The notes beneath the pieces are model-generated. The model had not been told where the DNA came from. It saw nothing but the letters and a program-made list of their open reading frames with translations, and did not search any database. The position numbers and the translations under genes were made by a program. Shown here one piece after another: positions 1,647 to 40,472 of a DNA stretch of 64,000 bases; the stretch's first letter is position 1, and the number at the start of each line of letters is the position of its first letter. Source of the DNA: a virus (lineage: Duplodnaviria > Heunggongvirae > Uroviricota > Caudoviricetes). The DNA lies in the IMG/VR virus record IMGVR_UViG_3300018432_000003, positions 19,394 to 83,393 of that record. One strand, given 5' to 3'.

Positions 1647-1720
1647 TTGGCGTGCTCGGACTCGAACCGAGAACCCCTGCGTTCCAAACGCAGCACTCTG
1701 ACCAATTGAGCTACACACCA
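1647..1720 (-). tRNA. tRNA-Pro (UGG)
   Basis: T-arm ctcgg-actcgaa-ccgag, anticodon stem ctgcg/cgcag loop UUUGGAA. Confidence 0.7.
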
Positions 1721-1729
1721 ATTGTAAAG

Positions 1730-1801
1730 TGGTTTCGGTAGGAATCGAACCTACGACACGATGGGCTTCAACCAACTGCTCTACCTCTGAGCTACGAAAC
1801 C
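1730..1801 (-). tRNA. tRNA-Phe (GAA)
   Basis: Perfect acceptor ggtttcg/cgaaacc, T-arm gtagg-aatcgaa-cctac, anticodon loop UUGAAGC (one stem mismatch). Confidence 0.6.
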
Positions 1802-1807
1802 ATGTTG

Positions 1808-1879
1808 CTCCCCGACTAGGATTCGAACCTAGGACATACGCATTAACAGTGCGCCGTTCTGCCGCTGAACTATCAGGGA
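1808..1879 (-). tRNA. tRNA-Asn (GUU)
   Basis: T-arm ctagg-attcgaa-cctag, anticodon stem acgca/tgcgc loop CUGUUAA, U1-A72. Confidence 0.65.
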
Positions 1880-1976
1880 ATGTTACCCGTTATCGCCCCC
1901 AACTGGTTTAGCCGATAGTGGGACTTCCGGCCTACGCAGCGGTCCCACAGGGCGTTGTAGCCACGGGTGGGGCTAG

Positions 1977-2987: not shown

Positions 2988-3169
2988 AAGCGTACGTGGA
3001 GAGGGCGGGGCGGGTCGTCCACCCATCTTCTAATCCCACACGATTCCTAGCAGGACTCCACGTACAATCTTTATATACACTATCATTCAGTTGTCAATGT
3101 CCGTATAGCAGTTTCTCAACGCTATAATTACATTATACCACAGACTCGGCACTTTGTCAAGTCCGTCAG

Positions 3170-3237
3170 CACGGATGGTAGGAATCGAACCCACTTCCGC
3201 AGTTTTGGAGGCTGCGTAACCGCCTTGGCTCACCCGT
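3170..3237 (-). tRNA. tRNA-Trp (CCA), short D-region
   Basis: T-arm gtagg-aatcgaa-cccac, anticodon loop CUCCAAA with C31.A39 mismatch, acceptor acggatg/cacccgt. Confidence 0.5.
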
Positions 3238-3247
3238 ATATATCTTA

Positions 3248-3276
3248 ATTATACACCACATCGTGCAAGTTGTCAA
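3248..3276 (-). promoter_or_regulatory. sigma70-type promoter for the tRNA/tmRNA array (TTGACA-N17-TGTATAAT on - strand)
   Basis: RC of 3245-3280 reads gcacTTGACAacttgcacgatgtggtgTATAATtaa; predicted TSS ~3241, 4 nt upstream of tRNA-Trp 5' end. Confidence 0.6.
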
Positions 3277-3348
3277 GTGCTTCATGGGGTGTATAAAAAT
3301 TACCCCTCTACTTATAATGGAGACGATAGGTTCCGGGGGGTCCAAAAG

Positions 3349-3657
3349 TCAATCAGCAAAGTCGGGATTGTCTCCCCACATCTCCGCCCCGTACATATCA
3401 TCCACACTATTCTGCCACATCTTTCCTTTCTTCTGTCGCTCTCTGTGCCGTATGAGGAAGTTGGTTATCCCTCTCACTATATTATACCTCAGTTGGTCCT
3501 CATTGTCAACCTCTTTCTCCAAGGCGTTGATAAGACCCTCCTGCACGGCATCATCTATAACACTCATCTCCCCATTCTTACGGTCTATCCTACTCTCAGC
3601 TACAGTCCTAGCGTAAGGTATCAAGTCCAAGAGAAGGGCGTTCTTATCGCCATTCAC
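3349..3657 (-). CDS. hypothetical protein (102 aa)
   Basis: ORF in leftward operon, 14-nt overlap with upstream gene. Confidence 0.45.
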   Translation of the reverse strand: MNGDKNALLLDLIPYARTVAESRIDRKNGEMSVIDDAVQEGLINALEKEVDNEDQLRYNIVRGITNFLIRHRERQKKGKMWQNSVDDMYGAEMWGDNPDFAD

Positions 3658-4246
3658 TCGGCACCCTCTCCTTCACTATGGTTCGTATGCGCTTCTCACC
3701 GAAATCCTTCTCGTACTTGAGGAATAGGTTCCTGTGTGCATCTGCGGGTGCGATTCCACTTTCACGGTATCTAACAAACGCTGCTGCAACCTCATTGTAC
3801 TTGTCCTCCATCAGTGCTTCAGTGTGGGTTGTGTCTGCCACGGATGCACGACGAACGAAGATGTCCTCGTCGTTGATGAAGTCAGCCAGCCATGTTATCC
3901 CTTCATCTGCACACAGTAGGATGGTGTTCTTCGGGTTCTGCCGTCTAAGGAACTCCAAGTCACTGTGACCGGCTTCCGGGTGCATGAACACCGACAAGAT
4001 TCCATTATACCACTCTGGGTGCTCCCTGTCAAGTTCCGAGAGAGCGTACTCTAGTGTCGCGTAAGTCTCACCGATTACCGAGTTGCTGTCCATCCTAGCT
4101 TCCAACTCCGGGGTCATCGGCCAAGACTCTTCCGCACCGAAGTTGTCACCCGCTGGCACGTAGGCAGTCTGCGGCCCAGGTGGTAGGATGTTCATGTAAT
4201 CAGCAAGGAGCGTTGCTATATCCTTGCGTTTAATCTCGCTTGCCAT
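3644..4246 (-). CDS. hypothetical protein (200 aa), acidic
   Basis: First gene of leftward unit diverging from the 4247-4356 AT-rich promoter region. Confidence 0.5.
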   Translation of the reverse strand: MASEIKRKDIATLLADYMNILPPGPQTAYVPAGDNFGAEESWPMTPELEARMDSNSVIGETYATLEYALSELDREHPEWYNGILSVFMHPEAGHSDLEFLRRQNPKNTILLCADEGITWLADFINDEDIFVRRASVADTTHTEALMEDKYNEVAAAFVRYRESGIAPADAHRNLFLKYEKDFGEKRIRTIVKERVPSEWR

Positions 4247-4323
4247 CTAGTCTCCTGTTCTAAGGCGTGTAATTTATGACCATACTTACATTATAACACA
4301 CTAAGCATGTAATGTCAAGTCTC

Positions 4324-4352
4324 TTGACTTTTCGCAAGAGATGTGCTATAAT
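4324..4352 (+). promoter_or_regulatory. sigma70-type promoter TTGACT-N17-TGcTATAAT
   Basis: cTTGACTtttcgcaagagatgtgcTATAATg; 28 nt upstream of AGGAGG-ATG at 4381. Confidence 0.6.
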
Positions 4353-4380
4353 GTAAGTGTACCCTATAAACAGGAGGATA

Positions 4381-4746
4381 ATGAGTAAGAAGTCACGTAG
4401 AGCGGGACGGAGGAATCGCCCGAGTAGGGAAGAGCGTTTGCAGGCTAGGATTGAGGCAGGCGTCCCTCACGGAAGGCCGAAGGGTGGTAGCGTCCGTCAC
4501 AGGCTCCCAATGAACATGAACGAAGTGAGGCAGTTGCTCAGTGCGAAAGGCAAGCACAAGTATCTCCGACACCCTATCGGCGGTAAAGAGAATCGGTATT
4601 GGGATAAGCTATGGCAGTATAAAGGTCGTCCGTACAATAAGACACCTTATAAGGGCGACAGCAAGCGGCGTAAAATCCGTCAGGAGAGACAGAGCAAGTC
4701 GTGGAGGTTGAAGCGCGAGCGCAACAATCAGAAGAAGGTAGCGTGA
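4381..4746 (+). CDS. highly basic Arg/Lys-rich small protein (possible nucleic-acid binding)
   Basis: ATG at 4381 preceded by AGGAGGATA SD (ORF track starts at GTG 4357); about 30% R+K. Confidence 0.55.
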   Translation: MSKKSRRAGRRNRPSREERLQARIEAGVPHGRPKGGSVRHRLPMNMNEVRQLLSAKGKHKYLRHPIGGKENRYWDKLWQYKGRPYNKTPYKGDSKRRKIRQERQSKSWRLKRERNNQKKVA

Positions 4747-4752
4747 CCTATC

Positions 4753-5049
4753 ATGGTATGGATTGTATGTGGCGCGATGCTTATGTCGTCTTTATACCCA
4801 ATCCATCTGGCGGTGAACTATTTCCATTCACTATACACGTCAAGCAAAGGCCAATCAAATCAGGAGAGGTACCGGCACTATCGAGTCTCACTAGTTGCAC
4901 TCGGACAGCTTGTTCTGATAATGGGCCTTGCGATGTGTGCGTGGGGTGCAGCAAGCACGTACATACCGACCTCCGTGGTAGAAACTCGTTCGGCGGCAGA
5001 CTCGGATGGGAAAATCCCGGCGTATCCAGTCCATCCCATAGGTCCCTAG
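4753..5049 (+). CDS. hypothetical membrane protein (98 aa)
   Basis: ORF with two hydrophobic segments, start adjacent to upstream stop. Confidence 0.45.
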   Translation: MVWIVCGAMLMSSLYPIHLAVNYFHSLYTSSKGQSNQERYRHYRVSLVALGQLVLIMGLAMCAWGAASTYIPTSVVETRSAADSDGKIPAYPVHPIGP

Positions 5050-5065
5050 TGGAAGGACCGTTCAC

Positions 5066-5581
5066 ATGAAACCCAGATGGTTCTACGACTACATTGGCAT
5101 GGTAGCGAAGCACGACCATAAGCTAGGCTTGAAAGCGTGGGACGCTGAGCTTCTCGACCACGTTGCAATAGATGTAACGATAAAGCAGGAACACACTGAC
5201 ATATATGACCCTATTGACGGTATGGGCGGGAGTATAGCCACCTTACCAGGGTTCTCTCAGTTGTACGTTGATGTCAAGGACGTGCCAGTGGGGGATATAC
5301 CTCCAAGGTTTAATCCAATCAGGATGTGGGCGAGAGCCGATAGCTTGAACTACTACATCATCGACATGAACCCGGACAACGGTCAGTATCGACCGCTGTG
5401 CTTGTTCGAAAATATGTACATAGACTACGGCGCAGCGCAGCATTCATGGCGCGGTGGTAGGCTTGATGAAGAGTGGACACACTACGAGCGTTGGGTACCA
5501 GACGAGAAGTGGTACTTCATCTATCCGATGAACATGACTGTCAGTACAAAGAACAAGAGAAAGCAGATGGACCTGTGGTAA
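5066..5581 (+). CDS. hypothetical protein (171 aa)
   Basis: ORF, SD-like upstream, no recognisable motif. Confidence 0.5.
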   Translation: MKPRWFYDYIGMVAKHDHKLGLKAWDAELLDHVAIDVTIKQEHTDIYDPIDGMGGSIATLPGFSQLYVDVKDVPVGDIPPRFNPIRMWARADSLNYYIIDMNPDNGQYRPLCLFENMYIDYGAAQHSWRGGRLDEEWTHYERWVPDEKWYFIYPMNMTVSTKNKRKQMDLW

Positions 5582-5775
5582 TAACCCTAGTGTGCTTGGC
5601 GGTTGGTCTTGCCCTAGTGGGAGTAGGGTGTACCTCCCGAGCGAACAACATACGGTCGAACACTGAGTACAACTACTTGAAGTGGGTAGTGTACGACACG
5701 ATAGGTGTGATGTCCTTGAGCTTCGCAATGTTGGTGGCAGGGCTGTTGGCGTTCGTCCTCCTGTCCTTCTTATAG
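5575..5775 (+). CDS. small membrane protein (GTG start, ~66 aa)
   Basis: Two TM helices (VITLVCLAVGLALVGVG / VMSLSFAMLVAGLLAFVLL); start overlaps upstream stop. Confidence 0.35.
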   Translation: MVITLVCLAVGLALVGVGCTSRANNIRSNTEYNYLKWVVYDTIGVMSLSFAMLVAGLLAFVLLSFL

Positions 5776-5894
5776 TGAGAGAGGTTTCTTATCTATAGGT
5801 TAAAGAGAACCGTTAAATTAACAGTAGAAACATCCCTTATATATTACTATATAAAGATAAAGAGCGCGTGTGCGCACGCACGCACGAGGGTAAT

Positions 5895-6317
5895 ATGCGT
5901 AGATGGTTGACGGAGAAGATACTGGAAGCTGGATACAGTATGGACAATAGGGCGCTGAGTTGGTTGGAAGAGAACAACGAAAGGACGTTATCGAAAATGG
6001 GTTATCACGACAAGAACTTCGGAGTGCCTGGGCCGATACTCGGTGAGGTACCTAGCGGTGAGGAAGGCAGTTACGCCTTGACGCAGAAAGACCCTGAGAT
6101 TGCCAAGGTTAAGAGAGTTGCTGCCAGTAACGTACTGTGGGCGTACGCCGAAGGGTATACTTCAGGAGCGGCTGACTGCGAGAATGCGAATGCCGATAAG
6201 TTGCAGGATTACCTGAGAGCCATAGCAATCAATAACCCTAGCTTGAAGTTCATGGAGTACGGTGCTGTTGAGGACCTGATACGTCAGCAGTTGTATCGGT
6301 GCTACCCTGAGAGTTGA
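5895..6317 (+). CDS. hypothetical protein (~140 aa)
   Basis: ATG at 5895 after GAGGG SD (track start 5868); AT-rich leader upstream. Confidence 0.5.
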   Translation: MRRWLTEKILEAGYSMDNRALSWLEENNERTLSKMGYHDKNFGVPGPILGEVPSGEEGSYALTQKDPEIAKVKRVAASNVLWAYAEGYTSGAADCENANADKLQDYLRAIAINNPSLKFMEYGAVEDLIRQQLYRCYPES

Positions 6318-6342
6318 CAACGACCCCGATATGTGGTATAAT
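6314..6342 (+). promoter_or_regulatory. sigma70-type promoter TTGACA-N17-TGgTATAAT
   Basis: gTTGACAacgaccccgatatgtggTATAATg. Confidence 0.6.
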
Positions 6343-9233: not shown

Positions 9234-9413
9234 ATGCCTAGAGATTCAACTAAGTACGGAGAGAACCCCGACGGCTCTCTGAAAGAGGGTGTGATTTTCC
9301 TAGACCCGACCGACGGCGAAGTGAAATCGGTACAGCCTGGGGAGAAGATTTGGTACCTTCATGGTGACCCCTTCACCGATGAACCGATACCGGATAGGGT
9401 CATCAAGGCTTAA
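9234..9413 (+). CDS. hypothetical small protein (59 aa)
   Basis: ATG after GAGAAAGGAC SD; below ORF-track cutoff. Confidence 0.35.
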   Translation: MPRDSTKYGENPDGSLKEGVIFLDPTDGEVKSVQPGEKIWYLHGDPFTDEPIPDRVIKA

Positions 9414-9889
9414 TGCCTCTTTGAAAAAACCTGTGGAGAGGTAGAGCATTCGTTGTAGGTATCAGGAAAAACTTAATGGGGGTGGGTGTATAGAATGGAC
9501 CTAGCCTTTGACATACTATGCCTCCCCTTGGGCTTTTTTACCCCCCCTACCCTTACTCAAACCGGGATACCTAAGCCACTCTGAGCGATTATGCGAACGG
9601 TTCTTGATTCGGTTGGAAGTATGCAATATACGGTAACATAGGAATGGTCTTTTGCCATAGTATGCGAGTTGGCAGTTCACTAGCCTCACCCAGAGTAATG
9701 AAACCCCACGAAATCCGCATACCTAAGCAACATATAGTCATCACTTGAAAAACATATAGTATCAGCATAATCCTAGCGTGATATCACGTACTATATGAAA
9801 TTAAAGTTCGAGCCTCACTCAACACGATGAGGCTAGACTGCCAGCATCGGTTTCATCGGTATCAGTGAGGCTATCATAACATCGCCTAT

Positions 9890-10075
9890 CATCTATACGC
9901 TTATCAGTATATATCAGTACATACCAACATATACGCTTAACAGTATGTATTGATGTATACGCTATATCGTATGTATATGTACTACCCTATGTATACGCTA
10001 TATCGTATGTATCTATAGCCCATGATGTATACGCTATACCGTATGTACTACCTATACGCTATACCGTATGTGTAC
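9890..10075. repeat. iteron array: ~6 direct copies (26-36 bp period) of dyad-symmetric core TATACGCT(A/T)TA(T/C)CGTATGTA
   Basis: Copies starting near 9894, 9930, 9956, 9992, 10027, 10053; core TACGCTATAYCGTA is an inverted repeat. Confidence 0.6.
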
Positions 10076-10133
10076 CCTTACTGTACTACCCTTACACTGT
10101 ACGTATACACTGTACAATACCCTTGATAACCCT

Positions 10134-10470
10134 TTGTTTTGCAATATCAAGAACTATTCCTATAATCGCTCTATCCCTGATACATATAGGCTATGATACT
10201 ACCGTTACACTTGACACTTTGTTTTGCAATTCGAGAGTAATAACTATTATTAGAATAGCTCAATCACTGATACTTATAGGCTATGATACTACCGTTACAG
10301 CTACCTTACCCTTGACAGATTGCGCCTATATTCCAAGAACAAGAACTATTCCTATAATCGCTCAACTTGGCTTATTTATCGGGAATAGTCCACTTTTACT
10401 ACCTTACTAGAATGATGTAACCCTTTACGGTGTAAGCTGAAATAAGAACTATTCGTGATTTCGCTCAATT
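10134..10470 (+). repeat. repeat cluster: TTGTTTTGCAAT (x3 + one at 10595), AAGAACTATTCCTATAATCGCT (x2 exact + variant), GATAC(A/T)TATAGGCTATGATACTACCGTTACA (x2)
   Basis: Direct repeats read from sequence; two copies form TTGCAA/TTCCAA-N16-TATAAT promoter-like units (10139-10166, 10331-10358). Confidence 0.55.
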
Positions 10471-11423
10471 CCCCCATTCTATCAGCATTCTGCCCACATC
10501 GCCGCTTGTAACATCATCGGGCTAGAAAAAAAGTTTGAAAGATTTCTCAAAAAGGCCGGATTTCAAGCCTATAGCGGCATCTGAGGCCATTTTGTTTTGC
10601 AATTCGGCCCTGCAAAAAGTGCTGTTTTGGCTTGTAACACCTTGCGGCATCCCGATTCTAGCTTTAAGGTTATACCCATGAAGTTGAGGCCGAGAGGGAC
10701 TCGGCGGCGAGGAAAGCGCCTAGACGCGAGAGCGAAGAACTTTCCGCTTGAAAATTGAATAGAGAGCGAATCGCCCGCAGGGAAGAAATTAAGCCCGCCA
10801 GCGGTACACTCCAAAGGGTTGAATAGCCCAAAGGTAACGCTCTCCCGGATGTTCAGCATAGGCGGCTGAAATAGGGTTGAAAGCCCGCTCACGTAGCGTC
10901 GTCACTGTTTAGCCTAGTGTGGCACATCTTAACGGGAGAACGCTCACGATAGCCCGCAAGCGCCACGGCGCAAGCGGTACCAGCATCGGCCAAGTAAGCT
11001 AAGAAATCACCGCTTGTAACAAAGAGGTTACAAAGAGGTACAAGCGGTTCAATCGGGAGAGCTAAAGGGTTAACGGTAGCTGATACCTAAGCGGTTCGTG
11101 GGAATGTAACCCTACGCAAAGGGTACAGTCTAAATCTCTATTCAAGGGTTACCTAATGTGGCTGGTAAGCACTTAGGGATACGGTAAAGGGTAACCCAAA
11201 ACATAGCGCCACGAACGGTTTTTAACCGCATTCTCGGAACGGTCTAGCGGCATGCTCCCGTTACTGTGGCGCGAAAAATGGGTGACGTTCGCCCAACATA
11301 GTCCCGAAAATCCCCAAGTAACTCCAGTTACTATATCCCACACTGATACGGTCCTACGGTAGTAATACCGTGGCACTTTTGCTCCCGTGGCACGGTATCA
11401 GTGCATGCTTCACAGTAACGTCT

Positions 11424-11699
11424 GAGGCGGAGCTATGTCCAATGTCCTCAGTTGCAGTACTTGATTGGCGCGGCCTTCGTACCCGCGCAAGGCGGAGCTA
11501 TGCAACAAATTAAGCAAGCATGCAGTACCGTAGGTACTCCGAAAGGCGGCACGGAGGATAATCCGTCGCATCTTTACACGTAAGGCGTGCGCATTCGGTT
11601 GGATGCCGAAAACGGCCATGTTCAATCATGGTGGCGAACCCGTTCGACTCGGGTATGCGTACCTACGCGCTCGTGGGTGGTCCACGAGGCGGAGCTATG
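11424..11699 (+). repeat. three copies of AGGCGGAGCTATG each preceded by a GC-rich palindrome, in a ~65% GC island
   Basis: Copies at 11424-11437, 11489-11502, 11686-11699. Confidence 0.5.
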
Positions 11700-11726
11700 C
11701 CCTAAAAGGGCAGAAAGGAGGGCCTC

Positions 11727-12143
11727 ATGGCTCTCAAGAACATCGAGGTTGCGGACCAGGGCACGAAGGTCGTTCTGTTCCCGAAGGCGAAGGAAGCGGG
11801 CACGCGGTTCACGCTCAACGCGAGCGAGAGCAAGCAGCTTCGCGCCCACGTCGCCCGCTACGTGGAGGCCGACTCCCGCGAGTTGCCGTACAACGACCGG
11901 CTTTCCGCCAACAAGCGCGTTGGCCTCAAGCGCAACAACGGCCTGCTCACGGGCGAGAACGCCCACGTGCTGGAGGCGCTCATGGCGGCGAAGGCTCGCG
12001 CCACGGGTAACGCCCCCGCGCAGTCCACGCCTGAGCCGCAGGCTGTCGCCGCTGGCAGCGGTCCTCGCAAGCGCACGAACAGCGACTTGACGAAGATGAC
12101 GAAGGCCGACTTGGTGAAGCTCATCCAGAAGCTCCAGTCGTAG
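11727..12143 (+). CDS. Ala/Arg-rich protein with C-terminal HeH/Rho-N-like motif (putative DNA binding)
   Basis: Strong SD AAAGGAGGG-ATG; C-terminus LTKMTKADLVKLIQKLQS; GC ~65% vs ~50% flanks. Confidence 0.5.
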   Translation: MALKNIEVADQGTKVVLFPKAKEAGTRFTLNASESKQLRAHVARYVEADSRELPYNDRLSANKRVGLKRNNGLLTGENAHVLEALMAAKARATGNAPAQSTPEPQAVAAGSGPRKRTNSDLTKMTKADLVKLIQKLQS

Positions 12144-12484: not shown

Positions 12485-12817
12485 ATGGGTTTTTCTTCTA
12501 GGAAGGTAGGGGGTATGCCTAACAAGCATGGGAGCAAGTGGATTCGCCCTGCAAAGCGCAGGCGCATATACGAGCGGGATGCATGGGAATGCTGCTACTG
12601 CTCGAAAAATCTGCACTTCGAGGTCGCGTCATCCCGCGAGAGGACGCTTGACCACATCGTGCCACGTGTACAAGGGGGTTCCAACGCAGAGACAAACCTC
12701 GTGACGGCATGCATAACGTGTAACAGCGCACGCGCTGACCGCGAACTGCCGAGCGAATTACTGGAAAAAGCCCTCGCATGGGCGGGGGTATGTCTACCGG
12801 GAGAGGCGGTTGCATGA
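12485..12817 (+). CDS. HNH endonuclease
   Basis: CxxC...LDHIVPRVQGGSNAETNLVTACITCNSAR; alternative start 12515 after AGGGGGT. Confidence 0.7.
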   Translation: MGFSSRKVGGMPNKHGSKWIRPAKRRRIYERDAWECCYCSKNLHFEVASSRERTLDHIVPRVQGGSNAETNLVTACITCNSARADRELPSELLEKALAWAGVCLPGEAVA

Positions 12818-38766: not shown

Positions 38767-39073
38767 CGTAGGCGAGAGGGTCATTGCGGGTGATAACATT
38801 GTAGGCTTGCAGGACGGTCAGTGTACAGCATACAAGATGGACTGGCCGATGTACGAACAGAACCCTGTGTACATGTTCGTAGTGGAGGTACTCAGTACGG
38901 GTGAGCAGCATGCATTCACTCGCCCGTTCACCATATACTTCCGCAATGGATGGCCTAGCTTAGTGTGGGAGATTAGTAATGGACAACTAGTAGCCGTACC
39001 TATCACCAGGGCTGCACTGAAGCAGGCCGGTAGCGTGTGGCTTGTGGAGGAAGCTAATGAGAACGTCAACTAA
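38747..39073 (+). CDS. hypothetical protein (~108 aa)
   Basis: ATG 38747 (track 38684). Confidence 0.4.
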   Translation: MRQYEDNVGERVIAGDNIVGLQDGQCTAYKMDWPMYEQNPVYMFVVEVLSTGEQHAFTRPFTIYFRNGWPSLVWEISNGQLVAVPITRAALKQAGSVWLVEEANENVN

Positions 39074-39080
39074 CTTCAAG

Positions 39081-40472
39081 ATGACCCCGAGGTTATACAG
39101 CCTTGCGGGTGCCTTCGAGAGTAGGGGGTATGAGTTCTACTTCGTCGGTGGTTTCGTCAGGGACACACTGATGATAAGCTCTTCGAAGGATGTAGACGCC
39201 ACAACCAACGCACCCCCGAGCGAGATAAAGGCCATACTCCGACAGCACTTTGGGGATAGCCTCGACGCAATGTACACCGTAGGCGAGAAGTATGGTACCA
39301 TCGGTCTGAAGATTGGTGTCCTCGACGTTGAGATTACGACGTACAGGACTGAGCAGTATGAGGATGGGAGTCGAAAGCCGGAGGTTGCGTTCGGTAGTAG
39401 TCTCTATGAGGACCTGTCGCGTAGGGATTTCACCATCAATGCCATCGCATGCGATAAGGATGCAAACATAATCGACCCTTACGGCGGGTTGGATGATATA
39501 CAGGAAGGAGTTGTTCGCTTTGTCGGTAAGCCTTATGAGCGCATATTGGAGGACCCACTGCGCCTTCTACGGGCAGTTCGCTTTGCAGCCCGTTATGACT
39601 TCGCTCTACCTCAACTGTTTGCTATACGAGTCGATTCGTCCGCGCTCCTTGAAGTCTCGAAGGAGAGGATAAGGGACGAACTCTGCAAGATGCTGGTGGA
39701 CGAGAAGCCCTCACGTGCAATCCGCATGCTGAAGGAGGCTTGGCTGCTGAGGTACGTAACCCGTGAGGTTGACAGGCTTGACACTGTTGAGCAGATAAGC
39801 CCCTACCACTATGAGAACGCCTTCGACCACACCATGAGGGTCCTTGACGAGAGCTACCCTGAACTAGACCAGAGGCTTGCTGCACTACTGCACGATACTG
39901 GTAAGTTCGACACGATAGAGTACCACAACGACCCTGACGAACGCACCACGTTCTACGGGCATGAGGAAGCGTCTGCGAGGTTTGCACATCGCATGCTGCA
40001 CAGGCTCAGGTTCCCTCACGTGATAGTGAACAAGGTCACCCACATGGTGGCGTGTCACATGCGTCCACTCCAACTCTACAATGAACTGGATGCTGGTAAG
40101 ACCCCTTCCAACCGTGCAATCCGCAGATTCATCAAAGCATGTCAGGCAGACAACTGCACTGTGGAGGACGTGTTGGAGCTTAACTACGCTGACATGAAGG
40201 GCCATGCAGAGCCGAACATGGACAACTTCTATCAGCTTGAGCGTCTAGTCAAGACTGTACGCACCGACGACAACTTCCAGCCGGAGGAAGCAGACAGCCC
40301 GCTGGATGGTAACGAGTTGATGGAACTCTTCAACGGAAAGGCAGGCCCAGGACCGTGGATTGGAGCTACTAAGGCACACTTGACAAACCTCGTAGTTGAT
40401 GGTATAATAGAGGTAGACGATAAAGAAGGTGCCAAGAGGGAGGCCCTAGACTATTGGAATCGAAGAAAGTAA
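39081..40472 (+). CDS. cca: tRNA nucleotidyltransferase (CCA-adding enzyme) with C-terminal HD domain
   Basis: GGFVRD ... DVD ... RRDFTINAIA ... EDPLRLLRAVRFAARY head domain; LLHDTGK HD motif; track start 39042. Confidence 0.65.
   Translation: MTPRLYSLAGAFESRGYEFYFVGGFVRDTLMISSSKDVDATTNAPPSEIKAILRQHFGDSLDAMYTVGEKYGTIGLKIGVLDVEITTYRTEQYEDGSRKPEVAFGSSLYEDLSRRDFTINAIACDKDANIIDPYGGLDDIQEGVVRFVGKPYERILEDPLRLLRAVRFAARYDFALPQLFAIRVDSSALLEVSKERIRDELCKMLVDEKPSRAIRMLKEAWLLRYVTREVDRLDTVEQISPYHYENAFDHTMRVLDESYPELDQRLAALLHDTGKFDTIEYHNDPDERTTFYGHEEASARFAHRMLHRLRFPHVIVNKVTHMVACHMRPLQLYNELDAGKTPSNRAIRRFIKACQADNCTVEDVLELNYADMKGHAEPNMDNFYQLERLVKTVRTDDNFQPEEADSPLDGNELMELFNGKAGPGPWIGATKAHLTNLVVDGIIEVDDKEGAKREALDYWNRRK
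40380..40408 (+). promoter_or_regulatory. sigma70-type promoter TTGACA-N17-TGgTATAAT inside 3' end of cca
   Basis: cTTGACAaacctcgtagttgatggTATAATa. Confidence 0.5.

Follow-up and report, generated by a model that had tools for sequence, protein, structure and literature searches.

What do the repeated promoter-like units in a gene-free stretch of this phage genome drive, and are they promoters at all? The units, here called modules and labelled m1-m5, lie in a single intergenic gap of the window, the 64-kb stretch of DNA analysed, which belongs to an 86-kb phage contig of metagenomic origin (Logan SRR6958552_156708). The repeats are real, restricted to this locus and conserved, and they precede a region in which an RNA core and a tRNA-like structure both covary. 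On the sequence evidence, the modules may be regulated tandem promoter/operator units driving a non-coding RNA, the tRNA-like element and the downstream genes, a reading to which we give an even chance. That they would be regulated promoter/operator units rather than plain constitutive promoters is held with moderate confidence.

The gap is flanked on both sides by + strand gene blocks. Three independent gene callers predict no gene between 9413 and 11727, nor is any predicted in the equivalent gap of relatives; the original prediction, that no credible open reading frame (ORF) follows the units, is thus borne out. An ORF-free gap of 1.0-2.3 kb lies upstream of the gene for a 138-amino-acid (138-aa) protein in every relative that reaches far enough. 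In the window, the gap has two halves: AT-rich repeat DNA (~9600-10500), with 34-41% GC and a C-rich top strand vs 52% GC for the genome, and structured RNA (~10655 to 11726). The repeat families of the first half are genome-specific iterons, the modules, and TTGTTTTGCAAT and TTGACA boxes. The features needed first are:

9414-11726: ORF-free intergenic gap of 2.3 kb, holding the modules, repeats, RNA and tRNA-like structure
10149-10174, + strand: module m1, with TTGCAA at 10139-10144, a 16-nt spacer and TATAAT at 10161-10166; an extra copy specific to the window
10239-10264, + strand: module m2, AATAACTATTATTAGAATAGCTCAAT, with a -10-like TAGAAT at 10251-10256
10309-10366, + strand: unit of CCCTTGACAG-N9-ATATTCCAAGAAC followed by module m3 (10341-10366), with TATAAT at 10353-10358
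10444-10469, + strand: module m4, AAGAACTATTCGTGATTTCGCTCAAT, without a -10-like hexamer
9580-9605, - strand: inverted module m5, AAGAACCGTTCGCATAATCGCTCAGA, then GGCTTAGGTATC; degenerate orthologues in the relatives L002 and L011
10134-10145, 10219-10230 and 10592-10603, + strand: exact copies of the TTGTTTTGCAAT motif, three vs 0.08 expected
10179-10209 and 10269-10299, + strand: duplicated 31-nt element GATACATATAGGCTATGATACTACCGTTACA

Four copies of the 26-nt module AAGAACTATTCCTATAATCGCTCAAT lie on the + strand (10149, 10239, 10341, 10444) and one is inverted (9580-9605); the rest of the 64 kb has none. The frame of the module reads AAGAAY-AAGAAC-TATTnn, then the -10-like box, then CGCTCAAT, with a tandem spacing of ~90-100 bp. 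The 23-mer AAGAACTATTCCTATAATCGCTC is exact at 10149-10171 and 10341-10363, with no match in 100 shuffles. Both TTGCAA-N16-TATAAT (10139-10166) and TTCCAA-N16-TATAAT (10331-10358) stand where the original prediction placed them, as does its degenerate copy at 10444, which is 76-83% identical to the reference copy. The "fourth" copy that it saw at ~10595 does exist, but is the third copy of the 12-mer TTGTTTTGCAAT, at 10592. Chance is far from accounting for any of the elements that the original prediction described. The module at 10239 (AATAACTATTATTAGAAT...), the inverted copy at 9580-9605 and an iteron array at 9930-10074 had been overlooked. Four of the five window copies, and every strong copy in relatives, point rightward, towards the RNA.

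Is the module peculiar to this genome? Near and distant searches with the gap DNA against known phages gave no match, nor did tblastn with a neighbouring protein. IMG/VR pattern scans with the module, a leader motif and two flanking proteins were also without a match, and the leader pattern occurs in none of the JGI metagenome contigs or GTDB genomes; those public collections evidently lack this phage group. Relatives were found by protein search with the 138-aa protein (ten homologues, the window's own included) and with the Zn-ribbon protein encoded before the gap (two homologues), followed by contig look-up. They are metagenomic contigs, labelled L002-L019. Their gaps lie at 7729-10057 in L002 and 4736-6482 in L011, and measure ~2.2 kb in L008, ~1.8 kb in L010 and 1.0-1.5 kb in L006; L012 and L003 were joined by an exact 141-nt overlap, and the gap of L004 ends at the contig end.

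The original prediction had proposed a search of related phages for the same module as a check on itself. The module is found at the same locus in L002 (8684, 8786), L004 (7, 186), L010 (566) and L011 (~5454), and in a degenerate form in L008; the repeats are therefore conserved, by the prediction's own measure. Module m2 is the orthologue of the first module in L002, L004, L011 and L010, and the unit of CCCTTGACAG-N9-ATATTCCAAGAAC and m3 is nearly invariant in L002. The L011 module carries AAGAACTATTCCTATAATCGC identical to the window, and reads by eye as ATTACA-17-TATAAT. A 26-nt weight matrix built from ten module copies was scanned over the 64-kb window and ~100 kb of related loci. Like patterns made from the module core, it matches only in gaps; the matrix has five matches in the window, two in L002, two in L004 and one in L010, with zero in the remaining ~60 kb of the window or the flanks of relatives.

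The window and L002 align over 10235-11756 at 63% identity, as invariant blocks between variable stretches, with indels that are not multiples of three. Could the module region encode a small protein? A frame is open in three genomes (10123-10410, 95 codons, in the window; 39 aa in L002; 49 aa in L004), with a common TAG stop in the window and in L002, and 177 nt align without indels. In the window, however, it starts at a TTG, with no ATG or GTG and no Shine-Dalgarno sequence, whereas the genes of this phage carry strong AAGGAG sites, and in L004 a 1-nt indel shifts the frame upstream. Blocks of 21 nt and 12 nt are identical, without synonymous changes, although identity in the neighbouring protein is just 60%. 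By codon position, substitutions (24/14/19) show no third-position excess, in a comparison of low power (25/20/30 in a control gene), and in the window, L002 and L011 the gene callers predict nothing here. A small protein here is very improbable.

If the modules are conserved, are they promoters? The promoter likeness pointed out by the original prediction holds, with sigma-70 as the type: m1 (TTGCAA-16-TATAAT) matches 10 of 12 consensus positions, m3 (TTCCAA-16-TATAAT) and m2 (TTTGCA-16-TATTAT) 9 of 12 each, and m4 fails. A -10-like hexamer is retained by the first rightward module of every genome (TATAAT, TAGAAT, TAGAAT, TATAAT, TATAAT and TAGAAA), with A at position 2 in all and T at position 6 in five of the six. 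Of the + strand sites between 6314 and 17135, m1 is the most sigma-70-like, and not until 24798 does another, perfect + strand promoter follow. Therefore, the gene at 11727 and the ~35 small genes that follow need a promoter here.

The other promoters of the phage are of a different quality. The window has 14 sites with at least 11 of 12 matches to TTGACA-17-TATAAT (3132-6342 and 24798-51848), none of them in the gap; all have a spacer of exactly 17 nt and are co-oriented with genes. Judged from these sequences, the host clearly uses canonical sigma-70 signals. As the ordinary promoters are perfect and absent from the gap, the modules form a distinct, weaker class. The same consensus-promoter pattern appears in L002, and is unusually uniform for a phage. 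The suggestion that the modules are host-takeover promoters fits poorly with this picture, since the strong promoters are the 14 perfect or near-perfect sites elsewhere. Nor do the modules resemble a phage-specific promoter class served by a T7-like polymerase or a phage sigma factor: their consensus occurs only in the gap, not before many genes. Readings of the module as an ECF-sigma, sigma-54 or sigma-32 promoter were rejected on inspection, the spacing being unfit.

Other proposals of the original prediction were that the units act as decoys or sponges for host RNA polymerase, or that each drives its own small RNA; the 31-nt GATAC... element would be a candidate for one. Several -10-like boxes do fall within 400 bp, the 31-nt element is duplicated as had been described, and its copies start ~12 nt past the -10-like boxes of m1 and m2. 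That element is nevertheless not kept in relatives, which have GGCTTAGGTATC-type tails, there are no terminators between modules, and no Rfam small-RNA or CRISPR-repeat family matches the module region at E <= 10. Against 14 perfect promoters in the same genome, five sites would be too few to titrate RNA polymerase, and nothing supports a decoy or sponge role; both proposals are far-fetched. A CRISPR repeat mimic likewise finds no Rfam CRISPR-DR match over 9300-11800 at E <= 10, a partial test because the host's repeats are not known. A leftward small RNA from the inverted module was considered and rejected. Its good -10 (CATAAT) is present in the window only, the counterparts being CATACA in L002 and CAACAT in L011; L002 has a second inverted AAGAAC copy (7815) left of the block, and the alignment holds no covariation.

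What, then, would regulated promoters at this site transcribe? The units do point at non-coding sequence, as the original prediction had it, and conserved structured RNA lies there. In place of one small RNA per module, there is one long region (~10655-11726) with a folded domain, a tRNA-like structure and the leader of the gene at 11727. The alignments thereby point to a large non-coding RNA downstream of the modules that is conserved, backed by compensatory changes and without earlier description. Its parts, with the gene that follows, are:

10655-11105, + strand: RNA core domain of type A, closed by a long-range helix of 10655-10659 with 11101-11105
10838-10942, + strand: three-way-junction subdomain of 105 nt, with invariant loops GGUUGAAAGCCCG and ACUGUUUAGCCUAGUGUGGCAC and compensatory changes in 10 of 33 pairs
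10504-10513, 10630-10639 and 11012-11021, + strand: GCTTGTAACA motif, with 9 of 10 copies across the gaps, relatives included, on the + strand
11491-11571, + strand: 3' block GGCGGAGCTATGCAA ... CCGTAGGTACTCCGAAAGGCGGCACGGAGGATAATCCGTCGCAT, nearly invariant
11587-11663, + strand: tRNA-like structure with an 8-bp acceptor, a 5-bp D stem (UGGA loop) and the T-arm loop UUCGACU
11670-11726, + strand: leader with the hairpins CUCGUGG-GUGGU-CCACGAG (11670-11688) and UGCCC-UAAAA-GGGCA (11698-11712)
11713-11720, + strand: Shine-Dalgarno sequence GAAAGGAG, ahead of the ATG at 11727
11727-12143, + strand: gene of the 138-aa protein, always directly after the gap

RNAalifold, applied to 10640-11110 of the window and L002, predicts 86 pairs, of which 20 are compensatory and none is broken. 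When partners are slid by 1-3 columns as a control, 0-2 compensatory pairs are left. The alifold energy is -79 vs -33 for column shuffles, which average 8 compensatory pairs and reach a maximum of 14. A second lineage has a different core sequence, type B, at the equivalent place (L004 vs L012+L003, 65% identity over the aligned RNA region), with 199 pairs, 29 of them compensatory, and an energy of -182 vs -114 for shuffles; each RNA type is represented by two full-length sequences. The window and L002 have type A, and L004, L011 and L012+L003 have type B; the cores of L006, L008 and L010 are of other sequence. A covariance model of the type-A three-way junction has no match in L004, L006, L008 or L010; only the window and L002, therefore, detectably share this core. 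Single-sequence folding z-scores are -5.7 in the window, -2.7 in L002, -6.0 in L006 and about 0 for type B.

Searches of the RNA region against Rfam were without a match, at E <= 10 for the window and L004, at E <= 1 for L008, L010, L006 and L012, and at gathering score for L002. Regarding coding potential, tblastx of the gap yields only short matches with an ever-changing frame. A mini-ORF at 10679-10759 (+) starts at a conserved CCATGAAGTT and would give a 26-aa Arg-rich peptide, MKLRPRGTRRRGKRLDARAKNFPLEN; a similar Arg-rich frame in L004 has 25 aa, L008 and L010 lack the ATG, and neither length nor sequence is conserved. It is probably a by-product of G+C- and purine-rich RNA. Purine richness was also tried as a strand marker and discarded, coding controls being equally purine-rich. 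The sequence GGCGGAGCTATG occurs three times on the + strand in the 3' part of the gap (11426, 11491, 11688), twice in L002, and also in L006 and L010.

The tRNA-like structure closes the RNA region. In a manual alignment of six sequences, pairing is kept in the acceptor (6-8 bp), the D stem (5 bp) and the T stem (5 bp) alike, and many of the changes are compensatory. The T loop reads UUCGA(C/A/U)U across the six, agreeing with the UUCRANY of a cloverleaf T loop. The "anticodon" arm is another matter, with a 6-nt loop in the window and an arm length of 7-31 nt across relatives. ARAGORN reports "tRNA-???" with a 2-nt anticodon at 11588-11663, and an equivalent site in L002. There is no 7-nt anticodon loop and no match to RF00005, and the L004 copy scores 27 bits vs the tRNA-Sec model, below its gathering threshold of 47. 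Because of this non-standard anticodon arm and the sub-threshold tRNA score, the element at 11587-11663 is tRNA-like and not a decoding tRNA. It is not part of a tmRNA either, as the structure closes locally and no tmRNA model matches here. Five to six sequences show covariation in the leader hairpins behind it. These hairpins, the Shine-Dalgarno sequence, the tRNA-like structure and the 9 of 10 GCTTGTAACA copies are features of the + strand, and put the predicted transcribed strand on +, in the direction of the modules.

Several observations weigh against reading the modules as promoters. The -35 is not conserved in relatives, and the L002 gap has no + strand site at 9 of 12 or better. The orthologous second module in L002 and L004 has TGGAAA in the place of the -10, and m4 is without a -10-like box. 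The most conserved module bases, AAGAACTATT and CGCTCAAT, fall outside the sigma-70 contacts. Besides the inverted module copy there are inverted partial copies, and L002 carries TTGTTTTGCAAT in inverted form; such independence of orientation typifies protein-binding sites more than promoters. With perfect promoters elsewhere in the genome, a weak one here needs the added assumption of regulation. Finally, the 34 best-supported pairs of the RNA core (14 compensatory) are predicted on either strand, and G-U pairs leave the strand of the core unfixed.

The main alternative, into which several of these points fit, is that the modules are protein-binding sites. With the iterons, TTGTTTTGCAAT boxes and inverted copies they would build a nucleoprotein complex on the AT-rich DNA, be it a replication origin, a silencer or a site of partition or packaging, and the TATAAT-like stretch would then belong to the recognition sequence or to an unwinding element. 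The elements of the left half that bear on this are:

9465-9555: conserved left block, AAAAACTTAATGGGGG ... GGGCTTTTTT, 80% identical to L002 7912-8003 and present in L008, L010 and L011
9930-10074: iteron-like array, six ~22-nt copies of TATACGCTATAYCGTATGTA with an internal ATACG..CGTAT dyad
10401-10420, + strand: invariant 20-mer ACCTTACTAGAATGATGTAA, with a second -10-like box, TAGAAT, then a small CUUAC/GUAAG hairpin

The order of the left half is conserved: the AAAAACTTAATGGGGG block, the inverted module, CAGTGAGGCTA repeats, iterons, two to four rightward modules interleaved with TTGTTTTGCAAT and CCCTTGACAG boxes, and the ACCTTACTAGAATGATGTAA block, of which RAGAATGAT is also found in L004 and L011. 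The CAGTGAGGCTA repeats, direct and inverted, number three to four in the window (9681-9705, 9811-9830, 9849-9873), five in L011 (4943-5442) and one in L002; they lie left of the iterons, and L011 has one further copy between the iterons and the first module. As for the TTGTTTTGCAAT motif, L008 carries TTTGTTTTC in five copies. The iteron sequence is unique to each genome, whereas the module is common to all of them: TATACGCTATAYCGTATGTA six times in the window, TACGTACAGTGTAAGT seven times in L011, a 25-mer five times in L010 and a 19-mer seven times in L002.

Direct repeats of ~17-25 bp beside an AT-rich stretch are the mark of an iteron origin, and are present here as the six 22-nt repeats and as arrays in L002, L010 and L011. 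Five to eight dyad-bearing iterons directly upstream of the modules in these genomes, the GC content of 34-41% vs 52%, the module copies in both orientations, the conserved positions outside sigma-70 contacts and the TGGAAA variant kept in two genomes all favour binding sites. So would the many metagenomic contigs that break inside the region. Against this, no DnaA box (TTATCCACA, up to one mismatch) is present in the gap, no initiator, ParA/ParB or terminase gene was found adjoining it, and no flanking protein could be assigned to Rep, HTH or any other Pfam or PHROG family. The cumulative GC skew does not turn at the gap; its minimum is near 4000, the site of transcription divergence. Binding sites would also provide no promoter for the structured RNA, the tRNA-like structure and the gene cluster, and the contig breaks coincide with tandem repeats, an ordinary cause of broken assemblies. 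On balance, a role of the modules as such binding sites is less likely than one as promoter/operator units. Contigs of this phage group that end within the iteron/module region include L013-L019, L004 and L010, the last of which begins with a poly-G run; tandem repeats that break assemblies are the most likely cause, with a physical genome end as the alternative.

Might the modules act as RNA, transcribed as the 5' part of the RNA or leader from a start further upstream, for example by read-through from the perfect promoter at 6314? The repeats would then bind proteins or ribosomes, or pair with the inverted copy. The inverted copy (9566-9606) is indeed 78-85% complementary to m1 and m3 over 26-41 nt and seems to co-vary with the direct copies within each genome, and the gaps of relatives have no strong promoter. 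Yet the module region of the window and L002 consists of invariant blocks and variable spacers with no compensatory helices, and the inversion of TTGTTTTGCAAT in L002 would be intolerable for an RNA motif. Moreover, the left block contains terminator-like hairpins followed by T-runs (~9520-9540). The block at 9465-9555 is probably a terminator region that ends the upstream operon, and an RNA-level role for the modules is improbable.

The regulated promoter/operator reading can be put as a sequence of events. Transcription of the upstream operon probably stops in the block at 9465-9555. Some 900 bp of AT-rich DNA follow, with an iteron array that is presumably bound by a fast-evolving phage regulator, and then two to four tandem rightward modules, each offering a -10-like TATAAT or TAGAAT box in a conserved frame. 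These would be used by host RNA polymerase with sigma-70, probably aided or gated by a protein that reads the conserved positions outside sigma-70 contacts, with a start ~7 nt past the -10. Variable iterons beside conserved modules would follow if conserved machinery such as RNA polymerase read the modules, and a phage protein that co-evolves read the iterons. The rightward transcript would begin with a leader carrying the strand-specific GCTTGTAACA motifs, cover the structured RNA (core 10655-11105, to ~11575) and the tRNA-like structure (11587-11663), and end as the mRNA of the gene at 11727 and the small-gene cluster. Enzymes of the RNase P and RNase Z type would cut at the tRNA-like structure, freeing a stable RNA from the mRNA. 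Firing of the modules, binding of a regulator to them, continuity of the transcript and processing at the tRNA-like structure are the steps that we infer.

Does the arrangement resemble a known system? The E. coli rrn P1/P2 promoters share the tandem placement ~100 bp apart, the 16-nt spacers, the G+C-rich sequence after the -10 (CGCTC) and an AT-rich upstream region with repeated protein sites, the upstream activator sites of rrn. In both, a large structured RNA follows and then a tRNA-shaped element that could direct processing, rrn having the order 16S-tRNA-23S. The strand-specific GCTTGTAACA motif of the leader resembles by eye the rrn boxA GCTCTTTAACA, the element that NusB/NusE bind in the nascent RNA. 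In contrast to rrn, the RNA here is not rRNA and is followed by protein-coding genes, and the conserved AAGAAC-TATT core is not known from rrn promoters. The T7 early region (tandem host promoters A1/A2/A3 ahead of a non-coding leader) and the phi29 central control region, with divergent promoters and p4 sites, offer clustered host-type promoters in phage non-coding DNA, interleaved with repeated regulator sites. Here, however, the strong promoters lie elsewhere and the modules are weaker, a ~1-kb structured-RNA leader follows, and the region is mid-genome between co-oriented gene blocks. Iteron origins and parC-type centromeres, in which iterons flank a promoter, share the five to eight dyad-bearing direct repeats of genome-specific sequence beside a promoter-like element; here, by contrast, there is no adjacent initiator or partition gene and no DnaA box, and the modules are separate from the iterons.

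On the RNA side, the closest likenesses are to GOLLD (RF01998) and ROOL (RF03087), ornate ORF-free phage RNAs of more than 0.5-1 kb in tRNA-rich phages (PMC12286853). GOLLD has a variable and a conserved half and can carry covalently linked tRNAs (PMC12286853). In the present RNA, likewise, the flanks are conserved and the core enclosed by them varies (types A and B), and a tRNA-like structure is attached. This RNA differs in giving no match to the GOLLD or ROOL covariance models even at E <= 10, in its conserved motifs, in lying ~7 kb from the tRNA array on the opposite strand and in its fusion to an mRNA leader. MALAT1 mascRNA, the tRNA-miRNA-encoded RNAs of MHV68 and the tRNA punctuation of polycistronic transcripts share a cloverleaf of acceptor, D and T arms with a non-decoding anticodon arm at a junction of non-coding RNA and downstream sequence. 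The locus here belongs to a bacterial virus, its cleavage by RNase P and RNase Z is putative, and no CCA is encoded, though the phage has a CCA-adding enzyme. The likeness to stable-RNA operons and to the tRNA linkage of GOLLD is one of resemblance, not membership.

As a tentative possibility, the gap may encode an undescribed phage RNA family of ~1-1.3 kb. It would have a conserved 5' flank, an exchangeable core and a 3' tRNA-like structure, with its own rrn-like tandem promoters gated by a phage regulator. Such an RNA would be released by tRNA-processing enzymes, possibly receive CCA from the phage enzyme, and act as a GOLLD/ROOL-like RNA assembly or as a decoy for tRNA-targeting host defences. 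Large structured phage non-coding RNAs such as GOLLD and ROOL are rare, and their functions are an open problem. The locus combines a candidate new RNA family, a putative 3' tRNA-like processing element and an identifiable control region, and it gives concrete handles for experiment in start sites, RNase P cleavage and regulator binding. That one locus has a conserved promoter-like class of its own, in a phage that otherwise relies on host promoters of perfect consensus, suggests special regulation of the RNA.

The surrounding genome is far from those of sequenced phages: the best match of its PolA is at 28% identity, and its structural proteins have no PHROG family. The window also encodes a class II ribonucleotide reductase, DnaB and the CCA-adding enzyme (39042-40472). 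The 138-aa protein has no Pfam or PHROG family, and its AlphaFold model (pLDDT 74) has no fold match in the PDB. Its gene (11727-12143) has 64-68% GC vs ~52% for the genome. A 75-aa N-terminal domain is kept in the ten homologues, and the C terminus, KMTKADLVRLIEEAGL, looks by eye like a helix-extension-helix or SAP-type element. In most relatives an HNH endonuclease gene (12485-12817 in the window) lies one to three genes past the 138-aa gene, and its varying position suggests a mobile homing endonuclease.

At the left end of the window, an array of about 20 tRNA genes and a short tmRNA occupy 47-2987 on the - strand; the tmRNA (2385-2626) scores 47.4 bits, just at the Rfam threshold. The tRNA array and tmRNA are also present in L002 and L006. 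Within the array of L006, at 1686-1929 (- strand), lies a sub-threshold manA RNA motif (46.3 bits vs a gathering score of 55.2; E = 8e-9). Beside or within that of L002, a 96-kb contig, are a sulfatase gene (PF00884) and an NlpC/P60 gene, at 1-30 and 505-888, which are possibly auxiliary genes or hints to the host.

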